This document shows positions 1,286 to 30,924 of a stretch of 32,000 bases of DNA, piece by piece. Numbering within the stretch: position 1 is the first letter of the stretch; every line of letters begins with the position of its first letter. The position numbers were made by a program, and so were the translations under genes. The stretch covers positions 32,057 to 64,056 of the forward strand of contig JAGBIO010000035.1 of assembly GCA_017934955.1 (NCBI GenBank), written 5' to 3'. The notes under the pieces are model-generated. The model made no database searches, was not told where the DNA came from, and worked only from the letters and a program-made list of their open reading frames with translations. This DNA is from Clostridia bacterium. Its GTDB lineage: Bacteria; Bacillota; Clostridia; TANB77; RGIG9151.

Positions 1286-1512
1286 GGGGCTGTAAAAAAA
1301 CTGCCTCAGAAAAATAAAATTTTCAAAACAGGGACTACAAACCGGAGTACAAAACGAAACGGAATGGGCCGCTTACATCTGCCGTCCAGGGCAGGGGTAA
1401 GCTAAACTCAGCCTCGTGTTGAGTTTACCCATTCCTTATCCGTTTGTACTTGCCGATTCTCCGTCATTGTTTTGAAAATTTTATTTTTCTGAGGCAGTTT
1501 TTTTACAGCCCC
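1286..1512. repeat. 227-bp extended hairpin element (repeat family 2) with perfect 45-bp terminal inverted repeats
   Basis: GGGGCTGTAAAAAAACTGCCTCAGAAAAATAAAATTTTCAAAACA at 1286-1330 is the exact reverse complement of 1468-1512. The interior is also largely self-complementary (GGAGTACAAAACG..ACGGAATGGG pairs with CCCATTCC..CGTTTGTACT). A T-run follows at 1513-1519, and the element sits just after the alr stop. Confidence 0.9.
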
Positions 1513-1628
1513 TTTTTTTCTTCATTCATACTCCCACTTATTGTAGGGGACGGCGTCCTCGACGTCCCGTTTTGCAACGTTTCAATTGAAACAAAAGTGT
1601 TTTGCGTAGGCAAAACACCTAAGGCAAT

Positions 1629-1720: not shown

Positions 1721-1779
1721 GTCGCGAGTTGCGTAGCAACTTTCCTTGCGTACGAGTGTGCATCCTCGCGGAGCGTTTT

Positions 1780-1820
1780 TTGTTGTATAGGCAAAATCTT
1801 TGATTTTTCCTATACAACAA
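1780..1820. repeat. Repeat family 4 hairpin, copy 1
   Basis: TTGTTGTATAGG-caaaatctttgattttt-CCTATACAACAA. The core TTGTATAGGCAAAATCTTTGATTTTTCCTATACAACAAAA recurs identically at 19362-19402. Confidence 0.8.
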
Positions 1821-1846
1821 AAAAGAGACACTAACCTAAGTTAGTG
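1818..1846 (-). terminator. Rho-independent terminator of paralog A
   Basis: On the minus strand the sequence is CACTAAC-TTAG-GTTAGTG followed by TCTCTTTTTT. An identical copy lies at 2783-2811. Confidence 0.8.
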
Positions 1847-1864
1847 CCCCTCGTAGTTTGGTAT

Positions 1865-2650
1865 TCAGTGGGCAGTGCTACCCCTAAGCACGAGAACCCC
1901 CGAGCCTATGTTGCGAGTGCTGTCAGGAAAATTGCGGCAGTAAACATCCGCCACAGGACAGCGGTATCCAAGATTGTAGTAGCTACCACCGCACGCCGCG
2001 AAACCCGCGTTATGGGCAACTATTTTATAGGTGTTACCTACGCCATCGGCAAATCCTCCGACCTTCCGCTTACCGCTCACTTCAAAGTCACCCGAAGCAT
2101 CCGGCGAATTCCGGTAGTTACCGGCACTCGAGCTGTCAGCACAGACGTACTCGAGAGTCCAAAAACCCTTCGCAATCCGGTACGCGTACCAGAGGAAGAG
2201 TTCGTACAGGTTAGCAAGGTCAGAGCCCCACTCAGGAGCGAATTCCTTGCCCTTCGCTTTCCATCCATTGAATGTGAGTCCTCTTGCTACTTCCTCATCG
2301 TTCTTATAGAAAAGCCTTCCGCGGGCATCCATCGATGGCTCGATTGTCGCAATCCGATAGTCGTAGTCGATGACCGTAAGAGCCTCTTCCACAACTTTAA
2401 GAAAGTCCGCCTGTTTCTCCGTCTTAGAAACTACGCCGGGCAGCCATTTCCGGACAAGCTCACGCTCTTTCTTCCCCATCAAGAAAAAATACTTCATCCA
2501 CGACGGTTTTTCCGTCGTCACTTTCTTTTTGGAAAGCAGATTGCCGGATTCGTCAAAGCATACCAGCTTACCGGAAACGGAAATAACCCTGACGCCTTCT
2601 TCGGTAATTTCCACCATACCACCGTTAATCAGTTCGATAACATTTTTCAT
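1865..2650 (-). CDS. Hypothetical protein, paralog A (261 aa) with a possible C-type-lectin/FGE-sulfatase-like C-terminus and a hypervariable patch
   Basis: ATG at 2650 sits 7 nt after GGAGG, and the reading frame looks protein-like. It is a paralog of 2830-3501. The central region (PEWGSDLANLYEL.LWYAYRIAKG.WTLEY, GVGNTYKIVAHNAGFAACGG) is about 90 percent identical between the two. There is no signal peptide. Compared with paralog B it has an extra roughly 38-aa N-terminal insert. Confidence 0.8.
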   Translation of the reverse strand: MKNVIELINGGMVEITEEGVRVISVSGKLVCFDESGNLLSKKKVTTEKPSWMKYFFLMGKKERELVRKWLPGVVSKTEKQADFLKVVEEALTVIDYDYRIATIEPSMDARGRLFYKNDEEVARGLTFNGWKAKGKEFAPEWGSDLANLYELFLWYAYRIAKGFWTLEYVCADSSSAGNYRNSPDASGDFEVSGKRKVGGFADGVGNTYKIVAHNAGFAACGGSYYNLGYRCPVADVYCRNFPDSTRNIGSGVLVLRGSTAH

Positions 2651-2725
2651 TCTACTTCCTCCTTCTTCTTTTACGTCCCCTACTACTATTTTTCATAGGC
2701 TTTCCGTTAAATGCAGCGCTTAGCC

Positions 2726-2754
2726 ATTATATCTCTAAATTATGTAAATGTCAA
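2726..2754 (-). promoter_or_regulatory. Consensus sigma-A type promoter of paralog A
   Basis: On the minus strand: TTGACA (2754-2749), a 17-nt spacer, then TATAAT (2731-2726). A roughly 75-nt leader follows. Confidence 0.75.
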
Positions 2755-2782
2755 GCTAAGAAGGATAGGAATAATCATAAGG

Positions 2783-2811
2783 CAAAAAAGAGACACTAAC
2801 CTAAGTTAGTG
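2783..2811 (-). terminator. Rho-independent terminator of paralog B
   Basis: The same CACTAAC-TTAG-GTTAGTG hairpin plus T-run as at 1818-1846. Confidence 0.8.
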
Positions 2812-2829
2812 CCCCTCGTAGTTTGGTAT

Positions 2830-3501
2830 TCAGTGGTCAGTGCTACGCCTAAGCACGAGAACCCCAGAGCCGTAGAAGCAAGTGAGGTCCGGATAACGTT
2901 CGCGAACATCCGCCACAGGATAGTTGTCCCCATTATTGCTGCAGTTACCGCCGCACGCCGCGAAACCCGCGTTATGGGCAACTATTTTATAGGTGTTACC
3001 TACACCGTCATAAAATCCGCCAACTTTCCGCTTACCGCTCACTTCAAATCCCTGCGAAGCATCCGGCGAATTCCAGTAGTTACCGGCGCTCGAGCTGTCA
3101 TCACAGATGTACTCGAGAGTCCACAAACCCTTCGCAATCCGGTACGCGTACCAGAGGTAGAGTTCGTACAGGTTAGCAAGGTCAGAACCCCACTCAGGAA
3201 CAAATTCCTTGCCTTTGACTTTCCATTCATTACAACAAATTCCTCTTGCCACTTTATCGCCGGCATTGTAGAAAATCCTTCCGCTACCAGAGTACATCGA
3301 CGGCTCGATCACTGCAATCCGGTAATCGTAACCGACAGACTCAAGTGCCTCTTCCACGACCTCCAGAAATTCCTTCTCTCTCTTCGTCTCAGGAAACACG
3401 CCGGACAGCCATTCCCGGACAAGCTCACGCTCTTCCTTACCCATCAAGAAAAAATACTTCATCCACGACGGCTTTTCCAACGTTGCTACAACATTTTTCA
3501 T
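2830..3501 (-). CDS. Hypothetical protein, paralog B (223 aa) of the same family
   Basis: ATG at 3501 has the same GGAGG context. The C-terminus reads ...GVGNTYKIVAHNAGFAACGG-NCSNNGDNY-PVADV-RERYPDLTCFY-GSGVLVLRRSTDH. Confidence 0.8.
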   Translation of the reverse strand: MKNVVATLEKPSWMKYFFLMGKEERELVREWLSGVFPETKREKEFLEVVEEALESVGYDYRIAVIEPSMYSGSGRIFYNAGDKVARGICCNEWKVKGKEFVPEWGSDLANLYELYLWYAYRIAKGLWTLEYICDDSSSAGNYWNSPDASQGFEVSGKRKVGGFYDGVGNTYKIVAHNAGFAACGGNCSNNGDNYPVADVRERYPDLTCFYGSGVLVLRRSTDH

Positions 3502-3576
3502 TCTACTTCCTCCTTCTTCTTTTACGTCCCCTACTACTATTTTTCATAGGCTTTCCGTTAAATGCAGCACTTAGCC

Positions 3577-3605
3577 ATTATATATCAAAATTATGTAAAT
3601 GTCAA
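3577..3605 (-). promoter_or_regulatory. Consensus sigma-A type promoter of paralog B
   Basis: On the minus strand: TTGACA (3605-3600), a 17-nt spacer, then TATAAT (3582-3577). The leader differs from the paralog A leader at one position. Confidence 0.75.
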
Positions 3606-3634: not shown

Positions 3635-3787
3635 GTTACAGTTCAGATTCGAATTTATAGAGACAGCACAAACACTGTAGGGACAGCATTCATGCTGTCC
3701 ACAGAAAAGGCAGAAAGCAGGACAGCATAAATGCTGTCCCTACGATGATTGTGCCATCATTATAGAAGACATCGTCTGAACTGTAGC
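3635..3787. repeat. Two-hairpin REP/MITE-like element (repeat family 1), full-length copy
   Basis: Ends are GTTACAGTTCAGA...TCTGAACTGTAG. Internal palindromes are GGACAGCAT-TC-ATGCTGTCC (3681-3700) and GGACAGCAT-AA-ATGCTGTCC (3720-3739), separated by ACAGAAAAGGCAGAAAGCA. Confidence 0.88.
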
Positions 3788-4563: not shown

Positions 4564-4651
4564 AGTCAAACTATATCACTACCATTGTACGGACAGCATT
4601 TATGCTGTCCTACTTTCTGCCTTTTCTATAAATTTGATTCTGAACTGTAAC
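4564..4651. repeat. Repeat family 1, single-hairpin deletion variant
   Basis: AGTCAAACTATAT...GTACGGACAGCATTTATGCTGTCC(4591-4610)TACTTTCTGCCTTTTCTATAAATTTGATTCTGAACTGTAAC. Relative to the copy at 30772-30924 it lacks the second hairpin, and the deletion lies between CTTTTCT direct repeats. Confidence 0.8.
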
Positions 4652-6271: not shown

Positions 6272-8177
6272 AATTGTCTTCCAACTCCTCCATCCAAATG
6301 CGATAACAAGCATCACTCGGCATCCGCCAGTCTCCTCTTGGAGACAAGGAAACCGAACCCACTTTCGGACCATCCGGCACACAGCTTCTTTTAAACTGAC
6401 TGTTAAAGAATCTTCTGTAAAAATCTTTTAGCCACTTCCGAATTGTCTCTTCTTCATAAACACCTTCAAAAGCAATTTTGGCAATTCTTAAAACCTTCTT
6501 CGCCGAAAATCCAAACCGCACCACATAGTACAGGAAAAAGTCATGCAACTCATACGGTCCCACAATTTCCTCGGTTTTTTGCGAAATCGTCTCCCCCGGT
6601 AATAATTCCGGACTAATCGGAGTCGCTAAAATATCTGCCAAAACTGCCTTAACTGCCTCGTTTTCCGTTTCATGCTCCGCATAAAACTCTACCATATACC
6701 GAATCAACGTCTTCGGTACCGAGCAATTCACGCCATACATCGACATATGGTCTCCGTTATAAGTTGACCACCCAAGCGCCATCTCAGAAAGGTCTCCCGT
6801 ACCGATTACAATTCCACCTCTCTGATTCGCCAAATCCATCAAAACCTGCGTTCTCTCCCGCGCCTGTGCATTCTCATAGGTCACATCATAACAATCTTTT
6901 TTCTGCCCGATATCCTTAAAATGTGACAATACCGAATCTTTAATATCAATATTGCGGAAAGTCACACCCAATTCTGTCGCTAATTCTTCCGCATTTCTCC
7001 TTGTCCTGTCACTTGTCCCGAAGCACGGCATCGTCACTGCCAAAATATCCTGCGTATTCCGTCCCAAAAGTTTCATCGCCATCACCGAAACCAATAACGC
7101 CAAACAGGAATCCAAACCGCCGGATAAACCAATCACAAGCGATTTCGCCGAAATATGCTCAATCCGCTTCGTCAACGCATTTGACTGCATTGCAAGAATA
7201 TCCCGACAATGCAAATCTCTTTCTTCTTTTTCCGCCGGAAGAAACGGAAGCTTCGAAAAGGTTCTCGTCAATTCTGTCTCTTCCGCTTCCATATGAAACG
7301 AAATGACTTTATACTCACTCGATGACTTTGCCTCAAAACTGCTGTTTTTTCTACGTTCATTCTCTAACTTCTTCACATCTATCTCACTAATGATGTAGCT
7401 TTCGGAAAACAACTTACTCTCCGCCAAAATACCGCCATTCTCCGCAATCAAATTGTGTCCCGCAAACACCATATCCGTCGTCGATTCTCCCTTTCCGGCA
7501 TCCGCATAAATATATCCGCAATTTAACCGTCCGGAAGTAGCACTCACCAAAAGCCGCCTATAATCTGCCTTTCCCACCACTTCATTGCTCGCCGAAAGAT
7601 TTACAATTATCGTCGCACCGTTTAACGTATGCCCCACCGATGGCGAAATCGGTGCCCATAAATCTTCACAAATCTCTACCGCAAAACGAAATCCCGGTAC
7701 CTCTTCACACGCAAACAACAAATTCTTTCCAAAAGCAACTTTCTCACTTTGAAACATAATTTCTGAATTTTCCGAAAAAGCCGGAGTAAAATACCGCTTC
7801 TCATAAAACTCGTTATAATTCGGCAAATATGACTTAGGAATCAAACCTAATAATTTCCCGCCATAAATTACAGCTGCTGTATTATAAAGCTTACCTCTAT
7901 AAGAAAACGGAAGTCCCACAACCGCTATAACCTTTGTATCCGCCGTCATCTTTAACAACGCATCAAGTGCAGACATGCTCCTTTCGATCAACGCTTCTTG
8001 AAAAAACAAATCTCCACAAGTATAACCGGTAATCGTCAACTCAGGAAATACCGCTAACCTTACTCTCTTCTCATTCAATTCATGTATTAACTCATTTACT
8101 TTCAGAATATTAAACTCCACATCAGCCACTCTCACCTTCAGGGTAACAGCAGCTACCTTTATAAACCCATCTTTCAT
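6270..8177 (-). CDS. nadE: Glutamine-dependent NAD+ synthetase
   Basis: An N-terminal nitrilase/CN-hydrolase domain (FPELTITGY, EICEDLW) is followed by a C-terminal NAD synthetase domain (GLSGGLDS P-loop). ATG at 8177 follows AAGGAGAG. Confidence 0.9.
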   Translation of the reverse strand: MKDGFIKVAAVTLKVRVADVEFNILKVNELIHELNEKRVRLAVFPELTITGYTCGDLFFQEALIERSMSALDALLKMTADTKVIAVVGLPFSYRGKLYNTAAVIYGGKLLGLIPKSYLPNYNEFYEKRYFTPAFSENSEIMFQSEKVAFGKNLLFACEEVPGFRFAVEICEDLWAPISPSVGHTLNGATIIVNLSASNEVVGKADYRRLLVSATSGRLNCGYIYADAGKGESTTDMVFAGHNLIAENGGILAESKLFSESYIISEIDVKKLENERRKNSSFEAKSSSEYKVISFHMEAEETELTRTFSKLPFLPAEKEERDLHCRDILAMQSNALTKRIEHISAKSLVIGLSGGLDSCLALLVSVMAMKLLGRNTQDILAVTMPCFGTSDRTRRNAEELATELGVTFRNIDIKDSVLSHFKDIGQKKDCYDVTYENAQARERTQVLMDLANQRGGIVIGTGDLSEMALGWSTYNGDHMSMYGVNCSVPKTLIRYMVEFYAEHETENEAVKAVLADILATPISPELLPGETISQKTEEIVGPYELHDFFLYYVVRFGFSAKKVLRIAKIAFEGVYEEETIRKWLKDFYRRFFNSQFKRSCVPDGPKVGSVSLSPRGDWRMPSDACYRIWMEELEDN

Positions 8178-8242
8178 AATATCTCTCCTTAGCATACCCT
8201 CAATTATTCTGCCATAATCTCTTTATATTTTAACATAATATA

Positions 8243-8293
8243 TATAAAAATAAAAGAGAAAACTTCCCCGCTTTCACGAGGAAGTTTTCTCTT
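8243..8293 (-). terminator. Rho-independent terminator of the 9239-8292 operon
   Basis: On the minus strand: AGAGAAAACTTCC-loop-GGAAGTTTTCTCT followed by TTTATTTTTAT. Confidence 0.7.
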
Positions 8294-9002
8294 AAAGACT
8301 AATCTTCATCTTAAAGTGAATCAGCCCGTTTTCGTTTGGATGTACTACGGAAGTGCACCAATGAAAGAATCCGGTATTCTTTAAATTAGTGCAAATATTA
8401 TCGCCTACCGCTTTCAAAAGTTCCTCCGGCTGTGTAGAAACATTAACCGAAAACTTAAATACAACAGTTTTCTTCATCTCGATCTTCATCTCAGCAATCT
8501 TTTCATAAATCTTATCACAAACAGTACTCAAAACGTAGTCATACGTCCTTGCGAAATTCTCATCCATTCGTTCCTTAACAGCTCGACAAATCTCCGAATC
8601 CCATTCCGGCAAATCAGGTATCTCGAACGGTTTTCCAAAATACGGACAAATTTTATCATCCGTTTCGCACCACATAAGTCGTACTCCGGAAACATTAATA
8701 AACTTCGTCTTTGACTTATATTTCTTCCACCATTCTTGCAACAACGTATTCAATTCTACATCGTCAAGCCTTCGACCGCCAAATTCCGCAAAAAATCTTT
8801 GCGACGATTGCACGACTTCACGCTCTTTGCCGGAAGCATAATTTACCGCAATCGCTTCTTTCAATTCGGGAAAAATGCTATCCAGTTGCTTGTCAAACTG
8901 CTCCATCACACACTTTTTAAATTCCGGTTCTTTTTCCTCAAAAAACTTCACTGCCTCATTCATAAAGTTAAAAAGTTCCGAATACTTTTCAGTCTGCGAC
9001 AT
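8292..9002 (-). CDS. Hypothetical protein (236 aa), no recognisable domain
   Basis: ATG at 9002 sits 9 nt after AAGGAGG. The frame looks protein-like, and it is co-oriented with and tightly linked to the upstream small ORF. Confidence 0.7.
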   Translation of the reverse strand: MSQTEKYSELFNFMNEAVKFFEEKEPEFKKCVMEQFDKQLDSIFPELKEAIAVNYASGKEREVVQSSQRFFAEFGGRRLDDVELNTLLQEWWKKYKSKTKFINVSGVRLMWCETDDKICPYFGKPFEIPDLPEWDSEICRAVKERMDENFARTYDYVLSTVCDKIYEKIAEMKIEMKKTVVFKFSVNVSTQPEELLKAVGDNICTNLKNTGFFHWCTSVVHPNENGLIHFKMKISL

Positions 9003-9017
9003 TTTCAACGTCCTCCT

Positions 9018-9239
9018 TCACCAGCGAAGCCGAATTTCAAAGTCCAAGGCAAACCCGTCCTCTTTCCTCCTCAGTTCATACATCACAGAAAAAGGCTCCA
9101 ATTGTTTACTTACCTCGTCACCAACCGCATCGACAATATCAGATGAGCAGCGGAAAAAACCAACTTCCGTACAATACGTCTGAAAGGGATTAAGCGTTTT
9201 TGCCATCTTAATAATCTGTGGTTTAAGCTCCTCTGTCAA
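9018..9239 (-). CDS. Hypothetical small protein (73 aa from TTG, or 62 aa from ATG at 9206)
   Basis: Its TGA stop overlaps the Shine-Dalgarno of the next gene. It shares the short motifs GFF[RH][CW], AVGD[EN] and a terminal beta-like strand with the C-terminus of the 8292-9002 product. The start is uncertain. Confidence 0.5.
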   Translation of the reverse strand: MTEELKPQIIKMAKTLNPFQTYCTEVGFFRCSSDIVDAVGDEVSKQLEPFSVMYELRRKEDGFALDFEIRLRW

Positions 9240-9393
9240 ACGCTTCCGATTCTACTTTCATGTTACATCCTCACTTTCATCAACGTCCATAGCAAGAAGT
9301 TCTCTTACTATTCTTCCAAAATGCGACAACATTATTAATATATCACGTTCTATATATTATGTCAAACTTTGCATCACTCACACTTCACTTTCT

Positions 9394-9637
9394 GTTACTG
9401 CTCAGACTATATCCTCCTACAACGATGGTACAACCATTGTACGGACAGCATTTATGCTGTCCTGCTTTCTGCCTTTTCTGTGGACAGCATGGCAGTCAAA
9501 ACTTCCCAATCACTTCGTTCTTGGAGTTTCTTTGCACAGGACGTACAAGCCATTCACTTCGTTCATGGTGTTACGTCCGCGAATGCTGTCCCTACAGGGT
9601 TTGCGCCTTCTCTATAAATTTGATTCTGACCCGTAAC
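9394..9637. repeat. Repeat family 1 element carrying a nested family 3 module
   Basis: GTTACTGCTCAGACTATAT...GGACAGCAT-TT-ATGCTGTCC (9443-9462)...GGACAGCAT(9482-9490)[92-nt insert]ATGCTGTCC(9583-9591)...TCTATAAATTTGATTCTGACCCGTAAC. Confidence 0.88.
9491..9582 (-). repeat. Repeat family 3 module, copy B, inserted in the loop of a family 1 hairpin
   Basis: The reverse complement reads TCGCGGACGTAACACCAT[GAACGAAGTGA]ATGGCTTGTACGTCCTGTGCAAAGAAACTCCAA[GAACGAAGTGA]TTGGGAAGTTTTGACTGCC. Confidence 0.85.
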
Positions 9638-11537
9638 CACTTTCTACCTCTCTTTTGACACGGTTTCCTTTTTTCATCTCATCTGTCGGTGGTGTAAACT
9701 CACCATCTGGCGGTGTTTCTCTCATTCCTTTGTTTCCGCCAAAACCGCCTCCGCCAAAAGAACCTCTTCCGCTTTCGGCGCCTTCCTCATAAGCCTTTGT
9801 TATTCGACCGCTTATTGTAAATTCCATCACCTTGGTATCTCCTCGATAGAAGGAATATGTCTCACCTTCTTTTAATAATTCCGACGAAATTATCAAGGAC
9901 TGATACGCTTTTTTTGGTGAATAAGTTACCAAAATTCCACCTTCTGCATCTCGAATCGATGCTTCCCTTTCTGTCGCCTGTGAACCTGCTAAAAACAACA
10001 TGACAGAATTTTGTGAAGAACTTTCCGAAGGCGTTTGTGCCATTCCCGAACTTCCTGCTGCAATTAAAGTTCCGCCGGTAATTTCAAACACTCGATCATA
10101 ATCCAATGCCCCATTTCCGCTATTCGTCGGTCCATTCACCGTCACAAAACCACCCGACATATACGCCGAACCATTCACGTCAATTCCATCTCCCGACGCA
10201 TTAACGGAAATAATACCGCCACTAATCAATAATTTGTTTTCTCCTTCGGTATCGGTAAAACGATTCTGTCCCGGTCGTCCGTTAACAGAAGAAGCATCCA
10301 TACCGCCGGATACAATGATTCCGTCATCCGACGAAACCACTGTAATCTCTCCGCCGGAAATCGCAATGGAATTGCTCTCAATTCCTTCATAACTCTTATT
10401 TATCTGAATTTTCCCATCGGTAATCACAATCGCCGTATCCGCATGAATTCCGTCATCTCCCGAAGACGCAACAATCACGCCGTTATTGATAATCACCGTA
10501 TGATTACTATGAATCGAATCATCCAAAGAATCCAGTAAAAATGTTCCGCCGGTAATTAAAATGCTTTTTGATGCCTTTATCGCTTTATAGCTTCCTTCAT
10601 TCGTCTCTACCGCTTGTGTTTCTCTTCGTCCTGACATGCTATCCTGTTTCACAGCGGCTTTCTCACTGCCACCACCGGTTGTAACAGAAATTTCTCCTCC
10701 GGTAATAATTACATCGGTACTTGCTTGAATTCCATCGGATCCCGCTACAATCGAAATCTTTCCGCCATCAATTGCTATAAAACCTTTCTCTTCCGACTCG
10801 CTATTGGTAGATTTCATTCCGTCTCCGCCGGAAACGATTGAAATTGTCGCATCTTTTACCTGTAAATCATCTTTTCCCACAATTCCGTCATTCACTGCAT
10901 TTACCGAAATCTCTCCGCCGACAACTTTCAAAGAATCCTTTCCCTGAATTCCGTTATTGTACGTCGCATTTACCGCCAATTTTCCTGTACCGTTTATCGT
11001 AAAATCTGCTTTGCTGTAAATCGCCGCCGTCGTTTCATCACCTTCTGCTCTTGTTGCCGCATCGGTAATTATATTCGTCGTACCATCCGCTAACGAAAGA
11101 ATCACCTTTTCCGCCGACACAACTGAAATCGGTGCCGTTGAACCACTGCTAAGCGTTACTCCGTCAAGCAATAACGTCACAACATCATTTTCCTTCGCAT
11201 TTACAACAATCTGCCCATCTGTTAAACTGCCAATCACCCGATAAGTTCCTGCCGTTGTAATTTCCGCCGTATTTCCGTTCACTTTCACCTTACTGTCGGT
11301 AACCGATAGCGAAGTATTCTCCAAACGAATCTCGGTATATTCTTTTTCCTCCCAAGAAGAATCAAAGGTGTCATTCTCTTCAAAAGCAATCATATCCGTC
11401 GAAATAGAGGTATCTCCGTCAATCGACGCAAGCATATCTCCCGTAATATCTCCGGTTGCACTATCTTTCTTCTTACAAGCCGTCACAAAACAAATCAATA
11501 CCAGTAACGCCAAAATCAATCCCAATCTTTTTTTCAT
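9612..11537 (-). CDS. Lipoprotein with a parallel beta-helix-like repeat region (Cthe_2159-type carbohydrate-binding domain family)
   Basis: The signal peptide has a lipobox (LICFVTAC). Repetitive GG.I.V....DGI motifs are typical of right-handed beta-helices. ATG at 11537 is preferred because AGGTGA lies upstream. The last 8 codons and the stop lie inside the repeat at 9394-9637. Confidence 0.75.
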   Translation of the reverse strand: MKKRLGLILALLVLICFVTACKKKDSATGDITGDMLASIDGDTSISTDMIAFEENDTFDSSWEEKEYTEIRLENTSLSVTDSKVKVNGNTAEITTAGTYRVIGSLTDGQIVVNAKENDVVTLLLDGVTLSSGSTAPISVVSAEKVILSLADGTTNIITDAATRAEGDETTAAIYSKADFTINGTGKLAVNATYNNGIQGKDSLKVVGGEISVNAVNDGIVGKDDLQVKDATISIVSGGDGMKSTNSESEEKGFIAIDGGKISIVAGSDGIQASTDVIITGGEISVTTGGGSEKAAVKQDSMSGRRETQAVETNEGSYKAIKASKSILITGGTFLLDSLDDSIHSNHTVIINNGVIVASSGDDGIHADTAIVITDGKIQINKSYEGIESNSIAISGGEITVVSSDDGIIVSGGMDASSVNGRPGQNRFTDTEGENKLLISGGIISVNASGDGIDVNGSAYMSGGFVTVNGPTNSGNGALDYDRVFEITGGTLIAAGSSGMAQTPSESSSQNSVMLFLAGSQATEREASIRDAEGGILVTYSPKKAYQSLIISSELLKEGETYSFYRGDTKVMEFTISGRITKAYEEGAESGRGSFGGGGFGGNKGMRETPPDGEFTPPTDEMKKGNRVKREVESGYGSESNL

Positions 11538-13350: not shown

Positions 13351-15678
13351 CTAATGCGTTATGCCAAGTTCACGATTTAATGCCTCACGTTTTCTTCTCA
13401 ATGTTTTTTCCTCTGTTATAACAGCCTGTTTCATTTTTCCCGTAACAGTCAATTTCAAATCCTGCAATTCTGCCAATCGCTTTTCTAAAACAGCATAAGC
13501 TTCCCTTAACTGCTGAACTTTTTCCTCTATTTGCATGTCTAAATTGTCTGCTTGTTTTGCCATTTCCGCTTGTTTCCCCTTATAACCGAAATCAATAGAA
13601 TGTTGCTGTTTTGCTTGCTGAATCACATCTAAGTCAATTTCTCCCTTCACTACTTTTGATAACGTTCTATTCACATTTGTATAACAACATTGATCCTGCA
13701 AAACATATTGGACGTAATCTTTTGCCAAATCCACATCACCTTGTGAAATCTCCTTTGTCACTGTTTTTCCGGTCTTTAAATCCACATAACCGATCCGAGC
13801 ATCGTCGCCAAATTTATACGGGCTTCTGTAACCTTTTACTCGACTCACTTCTTGGTACATCCCGCGAATAAACTTTGTTAATGATTTTTCATTTTTACAA
13901 ACTCTCTGAATCATCTCAATTTTCATAACAATGAGATCAATTTGTCTCGCAAGGGATCCCTCTTCTATTGTAAATAAGCGCACGTATTGGGGAAATGTTA
14001 ACTGCTGACTTACTATCCCTTCTGCAAATTTTTCAAATAAATGTTGTTTTTCTTGGGTAATACAATCTCTTACTAAAACATCAAAGTTTACGGTTTTTTT
14101 CAAATATTCCTCTAAGGATAATTCTCCGGAAATCAATCTTTTCCGGACATTTCTAACCTTTGCCAAATACTTTTCCGAATTTTTCTGCAATGTATCTTTT
14201 AACTTCTCCTCATCTATTTTATCACCGCAAGTCTCGCGAACAATGTGTAAAATCGTTTCAAACTCCTCCTGCGTCATTCCTTTTCTTTCTGCAAATGCCT
14301 TTTTACTTTCACTTCCCTGCGTAAATTCTCTCACTAAAGCAATTCCAAAATACTCTTCACCGGAATTCTTTATAATTCCTTGACAATCAAAACCCAGTTC
14401 ATTAACTCCTTCTCTATTTAAGCCTTTTCTATCATATCCGTCTTTATTATAACCGGCTTGGTCATAGCCTTCTTCATCATACCCCATTTCGTTATATCCT
14501 TCTCGATTATAACCGGCTTGATTATATCCTTTATCATCATAGAATGTTCCATTTCTATGCTTTCCGCACGCATTAAATCCGTTTCGATCAAATCCGCTTC
14601 GATCATAACCCGCTTCATTATAACCGGTGAAATCATAACCTTCTTCATCATATTTTGTGCCATTTTTATGTAATCTCGTTTTATGAAAGCCCCTTTTGTT
14701 GTAACCTTCTCTATCATAGCCATACCGATTATATCCTTCTCTGTTATATCGATCTCTATCATAACCGGCTTTATTGTACCCCTCTTTATCATAACCATAC
14801 CTATCATATCCGGCTGCATTATAACCACTTTTATCATATCCGAATGCATTATATTTCGTTCCATTTTTATGCAGCCCATCTTTGTTAAAGCCTGCCGCAT
14901 CGTACCCACTTCTATCATAACCGGCTTTATTATAGCCCTCTTTATTATAACCGGCTTTATCATAGCCGAACTTATCATAACCTGCTCTGTTATAGCCTTC
15001 TTGGTCATATCCTAAAATATCATAACCTTCTTCATCGTATTTTGTTCCGTTTTTATGCAACCCATCTCTGTTAAATCCTTTTTTATTAAAACCTTTTTTA
15101 TTATAGCCTTCTTGATCATATCCAAAATAATCGAAACCATGAGAATCGTATCTTGTTCCGTTTTTATGAAGATTGCCTCGACTAAATCCGTTTCGATCAA
15201 ACCCTCTTTTATCATATCCGTATTTATCGTATCCGTCTCGATCATATCCGAACTTATTATATCCGTTTTTTTTGTAACCATCCCTATCAAAACCTTCTCT
15301 GTTAAAACCTGCCCGATTATATCCATCTCTATCGTATCCACTTAAATTATATCTTGTTCCATTTTTATAAATTCCTTCACTGTTAAAACCTTCTCGGTCA
15401 TACCCCTCTCGATCGTAACCTTTCCGATTATAACCCTTTTTATCATACCCTTCTCGGTCGTAACCCTCTCGATCATACCCTCTTTTGTTATACCCCTCTC
15501 GGTCATATCCTTCTCGATCATAGCCCTCTCGGTCATATCCTTCTCGATCATAACCATGCCGATCGTAGCCAAAACTATCATAACCTTCTTCATCATACCA
15601 TGTACCATTTTGATGTTTTCCTCTACGCCCGGTCGGTGTAATTCTAAATCCTCTTTCGTCATACTGTATCTCTTTCAT
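13351..15678 (-). CDS. 775-aa protein with a roughly 400-aa N-terminal array of G-[YF]-[DN]-x-x pentapeptide repeats, a unique C-terminal domain and a coiled-coil tail
   Basis: ATG at 15678 sits 7 nt after GGAGG. The sequence GYDREGYDREGYDREGYDREGYNKRGYDREGYD... is punctuated seven times by [HK][KQR]NGT.Y. The non-repetitive C-terminal half ends in a heptad-rich segment. Confidence 0.85.
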   Translation of the reverse strand: MKEIQYDERGFRITPTGRRGKHQNGTWYDEEGYDSFGYDRHGYDREGYDREGYDREGYDREGYNKRGYDREGYDREGYDKKGYNRKGYDREGYDREGFNSEGIYKNGTRYNLSGYDRDGYNRAGFNREGFDRDGYKKNGYNKFGYDRDGYDKYGYDKRGFDRNGFSRGNLHKNGTRYDSHGFDYFGYDQEGYNKKGFNKKGFNRDGLHKNGTKYDEEGYDILGYDQEGYNRAGYDKFGYDKAGYNKEGYNKAGYDRSGYDAAGFNKDGLHKNGTKYNAFGYDKSGYNAAGYDRYGYDKEGYNKAGYDRDRYNREGYNRYGYDREGYNKRGFHKTRLHKNGTKYDEEGYDFTGYNEAGYDRSGFDRNGFNACGKHRNGTFYDDKGYNQAGYNREGYNEMGYDEEGYDQAGYNKDGYDRKGLNREGVNELGFDCQGIIKNSGEEYFGIALVREFTQGSESKKAFAERKGMTQEEFETILHIVRETCGDKIDEEKLKDTLQKNSEKYLAKVRNVRKRLISGELSLEEYLKKTVNFDVLVRDCITQEKQHLFEKFAEGIVSQQLTFPQYVRLFTIEEGSLARQIDLIVMKIEMIQRVCKNEKSLTKFIRGMYQEVSRVKGYRSPYKFGDDARIGYVDLKTGKTVTKEISQGDVDLAKDYVQYVLQDQCCYTNVNRTLSKVVKGEIDLDVIQQAKQQHSIDFGYKGKQAEMAKQADNLDMQIEEKVQQLREAYAVLEKRLAELQDLKLTVTGKMKQAVITEEKTLRRKREALNRELGITH

Positions 15679-16893: not shown

Positions 16894-16907
16894 TCTTCCT
16901 TTTGTAC

Positions 16908-16927
16908 GGACAGCATTTATGCTGTCC
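16908..16927. repeat. Solo family 1 palindrome between convergent genes (possible bidirectional terminator)
   Basis: GGACAGCAT-TT-ATGCTGTCC lies 4 nt beyond the stop of the RluA-family gene. Confidence 0.8.
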
Positions 16928-16931
16928 TAAA

Positions 16932-19361: not shown

Positions 19362-19400
19362 ATTGTATAGGCAAAATCTTTGATTTTTCCTATACAACAA
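19362..19400. repeat. Repeat family 4 hairpin, copy 2
   Basis: The sequence ATTGTATAGGCAAAATCTTTGATTTTTCCTATACAACAA matches the core at 1782-1820 exactly. Confidence 0.8.
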
Positions 19401-19404
19401 AACA

Positions 19405-19431
19405 GCGAGTAAAGTTTCTATCTTTACTCGC
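19405..19431. terminator. Terminator hairpin downstream of hpf
   Basis: GCGAGTAAAG-tttctat-CTTTACTCGC has T/A runs on both sides. Confidence 0.7.
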
Positions 19432-20061: not shown

Positions 20062-20215
20062 GTTACTAATCAGACTTAAAATTATAAAAATGTTACGAAC
20101 ACTGTAGGGACAGCATTTATGCTGTCCACAGAAAAGGCGTAAAGCAGGACAGCATGAATGCTGTCCCTACAATGGTTGTAGCATCATTATAAAAAGCTAT
20201 AGTCTGACCTGTAAC
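20062..20215. repeat. Repeat family 1, full-length two-hairpin copy
   Basis: GTTACTAATCAGAC...GGACAGCAT-TT-ATGCTGTCC (20108-20127)...GGACAGCAT-GA-ATGCTGTCC (20147-20166)...AGTCTGACCTGTAAC. Confidence 0.88.
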
Positions 20216-22056: not shown

Positions 22057-22083
22057 AAAAAGTCCTTTCATTTTTTTATGCAA

Positions 22084-22103
22084 GGACAGCATGAATGCTG
22101 TCC
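22084..22103. repeat. Solo family 1 palindrome
   Basis: GGACAGCAT-GA-ATGCTGTCC is followed by CTACAACAAAAGTTGT. Confidence 0.8.
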
Positions 22104-22130
22104 CTACAACAAAAGTTGTCTCAATTCAAA

Positions 22131-24547: not shown

Positions 24548-24611
24548 GGACAGCATAAATGCTGTCACTACGAGAAAATGTTGATTTGTACGGACAGCAT
24601 TCATGCTGTCC
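24548..24611. repeat. Two family 1 palindromes without the usual element ends
   Basis: GGACAGCAT-AA-ATGCTGTCA (24548-24567) and GGACAGCAT-TC-ATGCTGTCC (24592-24611). Confidence 0.8.
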
Positions 24612-24616
24612 ATTTC

Positions 24617-28797: not shown

Positions 28798-29155
28798 TTT
28801 CGAAAAATATCGGTAGAATGCGGTTTGTTCTTAAACTCTGTACGGACAGCATTTATGCTGCCCTGCTCTTCTGCCTATTCTGTAGACAGCATTGTGGACG
28901 TAGCACCGTAAGCGTACTTATTACAATTCAGACTATATCTCCTACAATAATGGTACAACTATTGTAGGGACACAATTCGCGGACATAACACCATGAACGA
29001 AGTGAATGGTTTGTATGTCCTGTGCAAAGAAACTACAAGAACGAAGTGCTTGGGAAGTTTCGACTGCTATTGTGTCCGCGAAATAGGCAGACAGTAGAAT
29101 TAGGACACAATGAATTGTGTCCCTACAAACCGCCTTCCGCCGATATTTTTCGAAA
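28798..29155. repeat. Compound repeat region bounded by a roughly 30-bp inverted repeat
   Basis: TTTCGAAAAATATCGGTAGAATGCGGTTTG (28798-28827) pairs with CAAACCGCCTTCCGCCGATATTTTTCGAAA (29126-29155). Inside are a family 1 palindrome (28844-28863), a truncated one, a second family 1 element with variant stems GGACACAAT/ATTGTGTCC, and a nested family 3 module. Confidence 0.8.
28977..29068 (+). repeat. Repeat family 3 module, copy C, nested in the loop of a variant family 1 hairpin
   Basis: GGACACAAT|TCGCGGACATAACACCAT[GAACGAAGTGA]ATGGTTTGTATGTCC...ACAA[GAACGAAGTGC]TTGGGAAGTTTCGACTGCT|ATTGTGTCC. Confidence 0.85.
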
Positions 29156-30771: not shown

Positions 30772-30924
30772 GTTACAAGTCAGACTATATCGTCCTACAA
30801 TGATGCGCAGCCATTGTGCGGACAGCATTTATGCTGTCCTGCTTTCTGCCTTTTCTGTGGACAGCATAAATGCTGTCCCTACAGTGTTTGTGTCTTTTCT
30901 ATAAATTTGATTCTGAACTGTAAC
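30772..30924. repeat. Repeat family 1, best-preserved full-length copy (opposite orientation to 3635-3787)
   Basis: GTTACAAGTCAGACTATAT...GGACAGCAT-TT-ATGCTGTCC (30820-30839) TGCTTTCTGCCTTTTCTGT GGACAGCAT-AA-ATGCTGTCC (30859-30878)...TCTATAAATTTGATTCTGAACTGTAAC. Confidence 0.9.

Follow-up and report, generated by a model that had tools for sequence, protein, structure and literature searches.

Among described diversity-generating retroelements (DGRs), the closest in organisation to the system reported here is that of Treponema denticola (PMC5758913, PMC4891356), a cellular, non-phage element in which one template repeat (TR) serves several targets scattered over the chromosome; seven non-adjacent targets was the maximum in the survey of Wu et al. 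(PMC5758913). The T. denticola variable protein TvpA (2y3c) carries a C-terminal variable region (VR) in an FGE/C-type lectin (CLec) fold. The phage BPP-1 DGR (Mtd, Avd, TR, Brt) combines adenine-specific transfer from TR to VR with an Avd-family accessory protein, a C-terminal VR in the CLec fold of Mtd (1yu0-1yu4), and a GC-rich element at the VR 3' end that is common to the TR and is followed by an inverted repeat. Here, we describe two paralogous genes, copy A and copy B, in a 32,000-nucleotide stretch of the metagenome-assembled genome (MAG) 'Clostridia bacterium' (GCA_017934955.1, contig JAGBIO010000035.1, positions 32,057 to 64,056; hereafter the window). Both are very likely real, non-adjacent (trans) targets of a chromosomal DGR in this rumen Clostridia bacterium, and the system is a newly found instance of a known mechanism, a cellular DGR with both adjacent and non-adjacent CLec targets.

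The system shares with T. denticola the cellular setting, the single TR for several scattered targets and the position of the VR, and TvpA is among the structural matches of its targets. Its targets differ in being small (215-263 aa), without a lipoprotein or signal sequence and without an FGE-sulfatase Pfam match; their genes are arrayed in tandem and transcribed independently of one another, the host is a member of the Clostridia and not a spirochaete, and the cassette has the order target, avd, reverse transcriptase (RT), TR, target. All of the BPP-1 features named above recur here (Foldseek matches to Mtd have prob 0.92-0.96), whereas the element is chromosomal rather than in a phage (neighbours include clpX, hflX, frr and uppS), has multiple targets, some of them distant and none a tail fibre, carries its TR downstream of the RT, and has a hairpin that lies 34 nt past the end of homology and would double as a terminator. 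The best match in the PDB is Thermus aquaticus TaqVP, likewise a cellular DGR variable protein with a CLec fold (5vf4, E=0.013, prob 0.90-0.95), yet the two share ~10% sequence identity with no detectable sequence homology, and TaqVP is 380 aa long with a different N-terminal region. Two papers on cyanobacteria and multicellular bacteria (PMC7517822, PMC10907252) report cellular DGRs with several, partly remote CLec targets that, as here, have no export signals. The targets there are reported to be regulatory proteins or putative antigen sensors of conflict systems; the present targets, by comparison, each consist of a CLec protein standing alone, to which only a small beta/helical part is added at the N terminus, and have no PADLOC match.

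Seven variable regions and one template repeat

Copy A (1865..2650, minus strand; 261 aa, NCBI J6M02_07210, an open-reading-frame call that exactly matches family protein P0001) and copy B (2830..3501, minus strand; 223 aa, NCBI J6M02_07215, family protein P0004) lie head-to-tail, copy B being a paralog without the N-terminal beta domain. Near the C terminus, within the framework GG-x5-G-x3-PVADV-x(6-7)-P-x6-GSGVLVL, two blocks are almost wholly different between them. A preliminary description, made from the window sequence, had placed these blocks correctly (the first-to-last variable base of copy A spans 1907-1983), was right in its count for block 1 (11 differences, 10 with an A in one copy), and supposed that the two regions were drawn from an AAC/AAT-rich template. 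The window itself contains no TR, RT or Avd-like gene, as that description had observed, and within it the two VRs are the only stretches that match the TR or one another. Both the RT and the adenine-rich repeat that it suggested looking for elsewhere were found at locus L001 (ENA scaffold_364, 123,842 bp), part of a second assembly of the same organism which resolves the cassette.

The cassette on L001 consists, in order, of target1 (7075-7863, with its VR1 at 7720-7841), avd (8223-8585), the RT gene (8578-9591, 337 aa, RVT_1), the 122-nt TR (9600-9721) and target2 (10001-10792, with VR2 at 10649-10770), the product of which, P0003, is a close paralog of copies A and B encoded directly downstream of the bAvd and RVT_1 genes. 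The avd gene overlaps the start of the RT gene by 8 nt, the RT gene ends 8 nt before the TR, and the two flanking VRs are 85% and 87% identical to the TR. Avd passes the threshold of Pfam bAvd (PF22296; 62.5 bits, cutoff 40) and scores just below that of NCBIfam NF033474 DivGenRetAVD (77.6 bits, cutoff 80; E=7e-22). The RT matches RVT_1 (E=3e-16) and has the motifs LGNYTSQ and YMDD, the [I/L]GxxxSQ motif being specific to the RTs of DGRs; its nearest NCBIfam model is a group II intron RT, far below cutoff, in a comparison that held no DGR-RT-specific model. Housekeeping genes (tig, clpP, clpX, hflX, frr, uppS, cdsA), not phage genes, surround the cassette.

In the targets' frame the TR encodes AGFAACGG-NYNNNGNNY-PVADV-NCNNNPNNTNNN-GSGVLV, with the codons AAC TAC AAC AAT AAT GGA AAC AAC TAT CCT GTG GCG GAT GTA AAC TGC AAC AAT AAT CCT AAC AAC ACT AAC AAC AAC, of which the first nine are the variable codons of block 1. 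Its 36 adenines are distributed 16/18/2 over codon positions 1/2/3, 15 of its codons are AAY, and mutagenesis of its adenines can yield no stop codon and ~1.1e20 encodable proteins.

We aligned the TR to every VR, with hypergeometric P-values for 36 adenines in the 122-nt template, and found that seven VRs at three loci match this one TR: those of copy A and copy B, and five others. The VR of copy A (1887..2008, minus strand) is homologous to the 122-nt TR without gaps, and 19 of its 20 mismatches fall on TR adenines (P=1.8e-11), the exception being one C>A, so that copy A equals the TR at 85/86 non-adenine positions. Similarly gap-free are VR1 (18/18 mismatches at TR adenines, P=6.1e-12), VR2 (16/16, P=1.8e-10) and two of the three VRs at a third locus, L007, namely L007_a in P0002 (19/19, P=1.1e-12) and L007_b in P0005 (14/15, P=5.4e-08). 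The VR of copy B (2852..2970, minus strand) has 16 of 22 mismatches at TR adenines, six elsewhere and a 3-nt deletion (P=4.0e-06), and L007_c has 22 of 32 and a 3-nt insertion (P=5.8e-08). Differences confined to template adenines mark a DGR target, which describes copy A and, only in part, copy B; the earlier remark that block 2 is less clean holds for copy B alone, since copy A is clean over both blocks. By sequence comparison, the C-terminal patch is a DGR variable region, because its mismatches to the TR concentrate on TR adenines.

An AlphaFold2 model of copy A, built on a 38-sequence alignment (pLDDT 92.8, pTM 0.82), places a CLec/FGE-like domain at the C terminus, after a small N-terminal beta domain and a helical region. 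The top 22 Foldseek matches in the PDB comprise TaqVP, EgtB, Mtd, TvpA, PvdO and CalU17 (prob up to 0.96), and in a viral library the model matched a Microcystis phage FGE-like domain (prob 1.00, TM 0.45-0.47) as well as tail-fibre proteins. With modest scores, these matches support a predicted CLec/FGE fold of DGR variable proteins for the VR-bearing domain, the fold that the preliminary description had proposed.

What has been observed comprises the relation between TR and VRs with its adenine specificity, the genes for RT and Avd, and the fold; by analogy with BPP-1 the steps of retrohoming in this DGR would be as follows. The 122-nt TR would be transcribed and then reverse-transcribed by an RT-Avd complex with misincorporation opposite adenines only, and the cDNA would replace the homologous VR in any gene bearing a GC-rich end that resembles an initiation of mutagenic homing (IMH) element, the downstream hairpin being a likely enhancer of homing. 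Up to 19 surface residues of a CLec-fold binding domain could be recoded in this way, for ~1e20 proteins without stop codons. VR homing would account for the hypervariable patch, and the scaffold codons would remain invariant because the TR has no adenines in them. Copy A would have been rewritten by TR-derived cDNA, and copy B as well, with point changes, a codon deletion and the change in its IMH-like element coming later.

Target sites, probable decay and the question of present activity

The VR of copy A has at its 3' end the GC-rich IMH-like element GGCTCGGGGGTTCTCGTGCT (1887..1906, minus strand), equal to the 3' end of the TR, and that of copy B has GGCTCTGGGG (2852..2871, minus strand), with a G>T change at window position 2866. 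The adenine-free GGCTCGGGGGTTCTCGTGCT ends the TR and the VRs (in copy B and L007_c with the G>T), and directly after it the TR and the targets diverge. In every target it is followed by T(A/C)GG(G/C)GTAGCACTG(A/C)CCACTGA, a short spacer and a hairpin. In copy A this inverted repeat (1823..1852, minus strand) has a 13-bp stem, a 4-nt loop and a T run (dG -20.4 kcal/mol, z=-4.25) and starts 34 nt beyond the end of the TR homology; that of copy B (2788..2817, minus strand), with a 13-bp stem, a 4-nt loop and a T tail, has the same stem-loop. The hairpin is kept in 7/7 TR-matching targets, where stem changes preserve pairing; alignment of the 3' flanks found no 13-bp hairpin after the TR. A layout of IMH/IMH* and inverted repeat has been described for DGRs (PMC5758913), and the target layout here fits it. 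By this analogy the GC-rich element would act as an IMH, and the hairpin, which also looks like an intrinsic terminator, is a candidate DGR target-site hairpin.

Several observations weigh against copies A and B being targets of a DGR of this genome. RT, Avd and TR are absent not only from the window but from the NCBI MAG itself, and the cassette is linked to it via binning, co-assembly and shared repeats, there being no closed genome. Copy A has its one non-adenine difference from the TR (C>A). Profile-sequence searches find no known family, a PDB-sequence profile search gave 0 matches, and the Foldseek E-values against the PDB are marginal (at least 0.013) with TM-scores of 0.3-0.47. The TR and VRs are identical between L001 and L009, the cassettes of two samples, and copy A, copy B, P0002 and P0005 are each alone in their 90%-identity cluster, with 3-4 contigs each.

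The last two of these points bear on whether the element still works. It is possible, if on balance unlikely, that past mutagenic retrohoming wrote the VRs of both copies and that the element has since fallen silent or acts only very rarely. The VRs and TR are the same across samples although L001 and L009 differ at 2 positions in 3,901 nt (L001 7315 and 10244), none of the four remote targets shares its 90% cluster with another protein, and 2/7 VRs are visibly decaying; no VR variants were found among near-identical database proteins, nor any VR turnover between assemblies, a comparison of assembled sequences only. Yet the RT (337 aa), Avd and TR are intact, and the five VRs with 93-100% adenine-only differences leave little time since they were last written. 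Moreover, minority variants would be hidden in consensus assemblies, and the samples are from one study and may share one clonal population. Present-day DGR activity is unproven, which bears on activity and not on the VRs having been written by a DGR. Between L001 and L009, target1 and target2 each show one and the same C>A (Q>K) substitution at matching sites, which accounts for both differences and points to gene conversion between the cassette-flanking targets.

Copy B is most likely a formerly diversified target that has been retired and is decaying, as judged from its sequence. The G>T in the IMH-like element is found in both decayed VRs (copy B and L007_c) and in 0/5 clean VRs (Fisher P=0.048); homing may have been stopped by the G>T itself or by something linked with it, after which ordinary mutations would have accrued. 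In some DGRs described by Wu et al. (PMC5758913), only A-to-N differences occur in one target, whereas another shows several non-A-to-N differences and an indel, which the authors suggest may be a mutagenic capability of the element, and on that precedent copy B could still be an active target whose non-adenine changes and indel come from non-canonical DGR mutagenesis. We consider this improbable: one of the non-adenine changes lies 5' of the first variable codon and another in the adenine-free IMH-like element, the same G>T marks the only other decayed VR and no clean one, and fresh homing would overwrite all non-adenine differences. A second TR behind copy B is likewise judged unlikely, since the decayed VRs depart in length by -3 nt in one case and +3 nt in the other and only one RT was seen in the part of the genome covered. 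With clean and decayed VRs side by side, the substitution shared by the decayed ones leads to the hypothesis that a change in the IMH-like element retires a target.

That the cassette and the window genes reside in one genome is highly probable from the sequence matches, and all loci would then lie on one chromosome. Copies A and B are exact matches to proteins of the NCBI MAG, and the contigs that carry them belong to the metagenome assembly set XIEF21-1. Three further family members are held by the same MAG: J6M02_07110 (P0041, diverged), J6M02_06595 (P0013, partial) and J6M02_04830 (P0097, partial). P0013 equals the N-terminal 166 aa of target1 and P0097 the C-terminal 85 aa of target2, with VR2 exactly; both are partial genes, as expected at contig ends. 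Because target1 and target2 have at least 300 nt in common at 100% identity, the MAG assembly appears to have broken inside these two flanking targets, which would be why the RT and Avd are seen only in ENA/Logan assemblies and not in NCBI. Copy A is also found on scaffold_3190 of the same assembly as the cassette. No RT was found on either side of the genes, over 29 kb of the window in one direction and 10 kb of locus L005 in the other, and a search of the GTDB representative genomes with P0001 found no relative, the species not being in the representative set. As the assembly broke exactly at the DGR, such architectures will be under-called in MAG catalogues, because repeated target genes break assembly.

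An intergenic palindrome resembling repetitive extragenic palindromic (REP) elements, GGACAGCATNNATGCTGTCC, is frequent in the window and gives a further link, being present in 7/7 of the longer loci of this organism and in 0/8 loci of other species. Palindromes of this REP/MITE-like kind (MITE, miniature inverted-repeat transposable element) with the core GGACAGCATTTATGCTGTCC are at window positions 3676-3704, 4586-4614, 9438-9466, 16903-16931, 20103-20131, 22079-22107, 24587-24615, 28839-28867, 30815-30843 and 30854-30882, often paired within units of ~120-135 nt and in both orientations; composite units lie at 3635-3767, 20062-20194, 9394-9596, 28963-29097 and 30805-30924. The core can be used as a genome signature, because every longer locus of the organism has it and none of the loci from other species does. 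It is very improbable that the cassette comes from another organism of the same metagenome, the window genes merely resembling its targets. Linkage by binning and co-assembly only, and the lack of RT and Avd proteins in the NCBI MAG, would allow this, but the MAG has both truncated cassette-flanking targets including the exact VR of target2, copy A agrees with the TR at nearly every non-adenine position, the species-specific palindrome is common to the loci, and homology between the targets extends to their promoters, leaders and hairpins.

For block 2 the preliminary description had kept ordinary diversifying selection or cassette recombination as a live alternative. An origin of the patch by such selection, or by cassette exchange or gene conversion between paralogs, would need no reverse transcription; gene conversion does occur (the identical stretch of target1 and target2, the C>A shared in L009) and copy B does have third-position changes and an indel, but such processes cannot create a dependence on the base in a separate template, so that the 19/20 differences of copy A on adenines of a non-coding repeat beside an RT, with 14/15 to 19/19 in four other VRs, refute this explanation for copy A and leave it a negligible probability overall.

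Transcription units and the mosaic of conservation

Open reading frames and signal coordinates bear out the earlier account of two complete head-to-tail units, each with promoter, leader, coding sequence and terminator. Consensus sigma-70 promoters (TTGACA-17-TATAAT, 12/12) precede copy A at 2726..2754 and copy B at 3577..3605, both on the minus strand; the perfect hexamers are common to both, and alignment shows related promoters at the equivalent place before other paralogs. The 75-nt leader of copy A (2651..2725, minus strand) carries a conserved ATAGTAGTAGGGGACGTAAAAGA block and a ribosome-binding site, and that of copy B (3502..3576, minus strand) differs from it by one base. A riboswitch or other RNA in the conserved leader was considered and dropped, the copy A leader having no match in an Rfam search and no stable fold (z=+0.9).

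Conservation between the units is strongly mosaic, as had been stated, and both DNA and protein alignments agree on this. Identity is 97% for promoter and leader together (116 nt), 89% in the middle of the coding region and ~80% in its N-terminal part, and from the stop codon through the hairpin there are no differences, in line with the identical terminator and 3' flank reported earlier. The statement that promoter and leader differ at a single base was slightly optimistic: it is right for the leader, and the promoter spacer adds two more differences. Likewise, the 38 residues described as an insert in copy A are real as extra N-terminal residues, but not as a gain, for the segment is present in most family members; because of this distribution, we read the 38-residue N-terminal segment as the ancestral state, lost by copy B and not gained by copy A. 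The identical flanks could stem from tandem duplication, possibly with gene conversion, and perhaps from a constraint of target recognition.

The target family and neighbouring features

The targets have no match above threshold in Pfam (including FGE-sulfatase, PF03781), NCBIfam, PHROG or PADLOC, their sole weak family match being mtd_2nd (PF21916; E=0.098, 13.4 bits, cutoff 24.6). Clustered at 50% identity, the family numbers 590 clusters at E<=1e-3 in an exhaustive profile search, and 145 at E<=1e-30, and members have so far come from Clostridia MAGs of animal guts (goat rumen, rabbit, chicken). Across the family, variation is concentrated in the same two blocks, which was the pattern that the preliminary description proposed looking for. 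Codons of the NNY type are expected to leave K, E, Q, M and W out of the 19 residues templated by TR adenines, and in 18/94 members all five are missing there; as these residues have a whole-protein frequency of ~0.2, a given protein would show 0/19 by chance with a probability of ~0.014. Such residues occur several times at the templated columns of other members, which look fixed or decayed. A further tandem pair, of diverged paralogs, lies on the same MAG contig as the window (L002 9190-9852 and 10001-10669; P0041, J6M02_07110). Compared as DNA, its C-terminal patches show no match to the TR, and among their residues are K, M and W, so we take the pair, from sequence alone, to be old or never-targeted family members of the same genome.

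Family members in other species form tandem arrays of 1-5 genes in housekeeping contexts. A narrower GTDB alignment search turned up three loci in other species, none of which has an RT within 10 kb, and P0041, P0065, P0048 and P0076 have housekeeping neighbourhoods, also with no RT within 10 kb; because the neighbourhoods of distant members lack an RT at this range, adjacency to one appears exceptional in the family. ParE toxin and patatin genes lie near the DGR cassette (L001 3998-4276 and 5628-6944), and at L013 10001-12256 the gene of the distant family member P0065 immediately precedes the Thoeris-like genes ThsA_Macro and ThsB_TIR, with a PemK toxin nearby. The neighbourhoods of P0065 and of the cassette may reflect an association with defence islands, or chance.

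A crude Kyte-Doolittle hydropathy scan found no signal-like or membrane-like segment in 93/95 family members, a departure from the majority of cellular DGR targets in Roux et al. (PMC8144416). The targets are probably cytoplasmic, because they have no signal peptide and no membrane segment. We offer as speculation, and at long odds, that one DGR maintains at least seven separately transcribed, probably cytoplasmic CLec proteins as intracellular antibody-like binders, for example to sense phage or foreign molecules, and that a single-base change in its IMH-like element, such as the G>T of the two decayed copies, takes a target out of this set. By their own account, large surveys of metagenomes miss remote targets, since they require the VR to adjoin the RT (PMC8144416), and here a remote DGR target could be recognised from sequence alone in a window without a retroelement. 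The system documents multiple targeting, with seven VRs that match the TR, spread over three loci and borne by tandem genes each transcribed on its own, and adds a new target family of ~590 clusters at 50% identity that lacks both a Pfam model and export signals.

Other repeats and RNA-like features lie near the target genes. A second GC-rich palindromic repeat, TAGGGGACGGCGTCCTCGAC, occurs at window 1540-1570 and after each of the three L007 paralogs, and so adjoins target genes at two different loci. Right after the triple target array of L007, a 185-aa open reading frame (L007 12757-13314) has a weak match to IS200-like Y1 transposases (E=3.7e-4). A 40-nt AT-rich hairpin, TTGTATAGGCAAAATCTTTGATTTTTCCTATACAA, is present at window 1778-1828 and 19363-19408, 17.5 kb apart, one copy abutting the copy A terminator. 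Between alr and copy A, a sub-threshold Rfam match to the TwoAYGGAY RNA (RF01731; window 1332-1466, minus strand; 37.2 bits, gathering threshold 43, E=0.0013) spans the full model and is flanked by a 53-nt inverted repeat (1283-1335/1463-1515). Farther off, at window 13351-15678 (minus strand), a 775-aa open reading frame has an N-terminal portion of ~450 residues made of dozens of 5-aa (15-nt) G-[YF]-[DN]-[RK]-x repeats (GYDREGYDREGY...), and its C-terminal half is non-repetitive.

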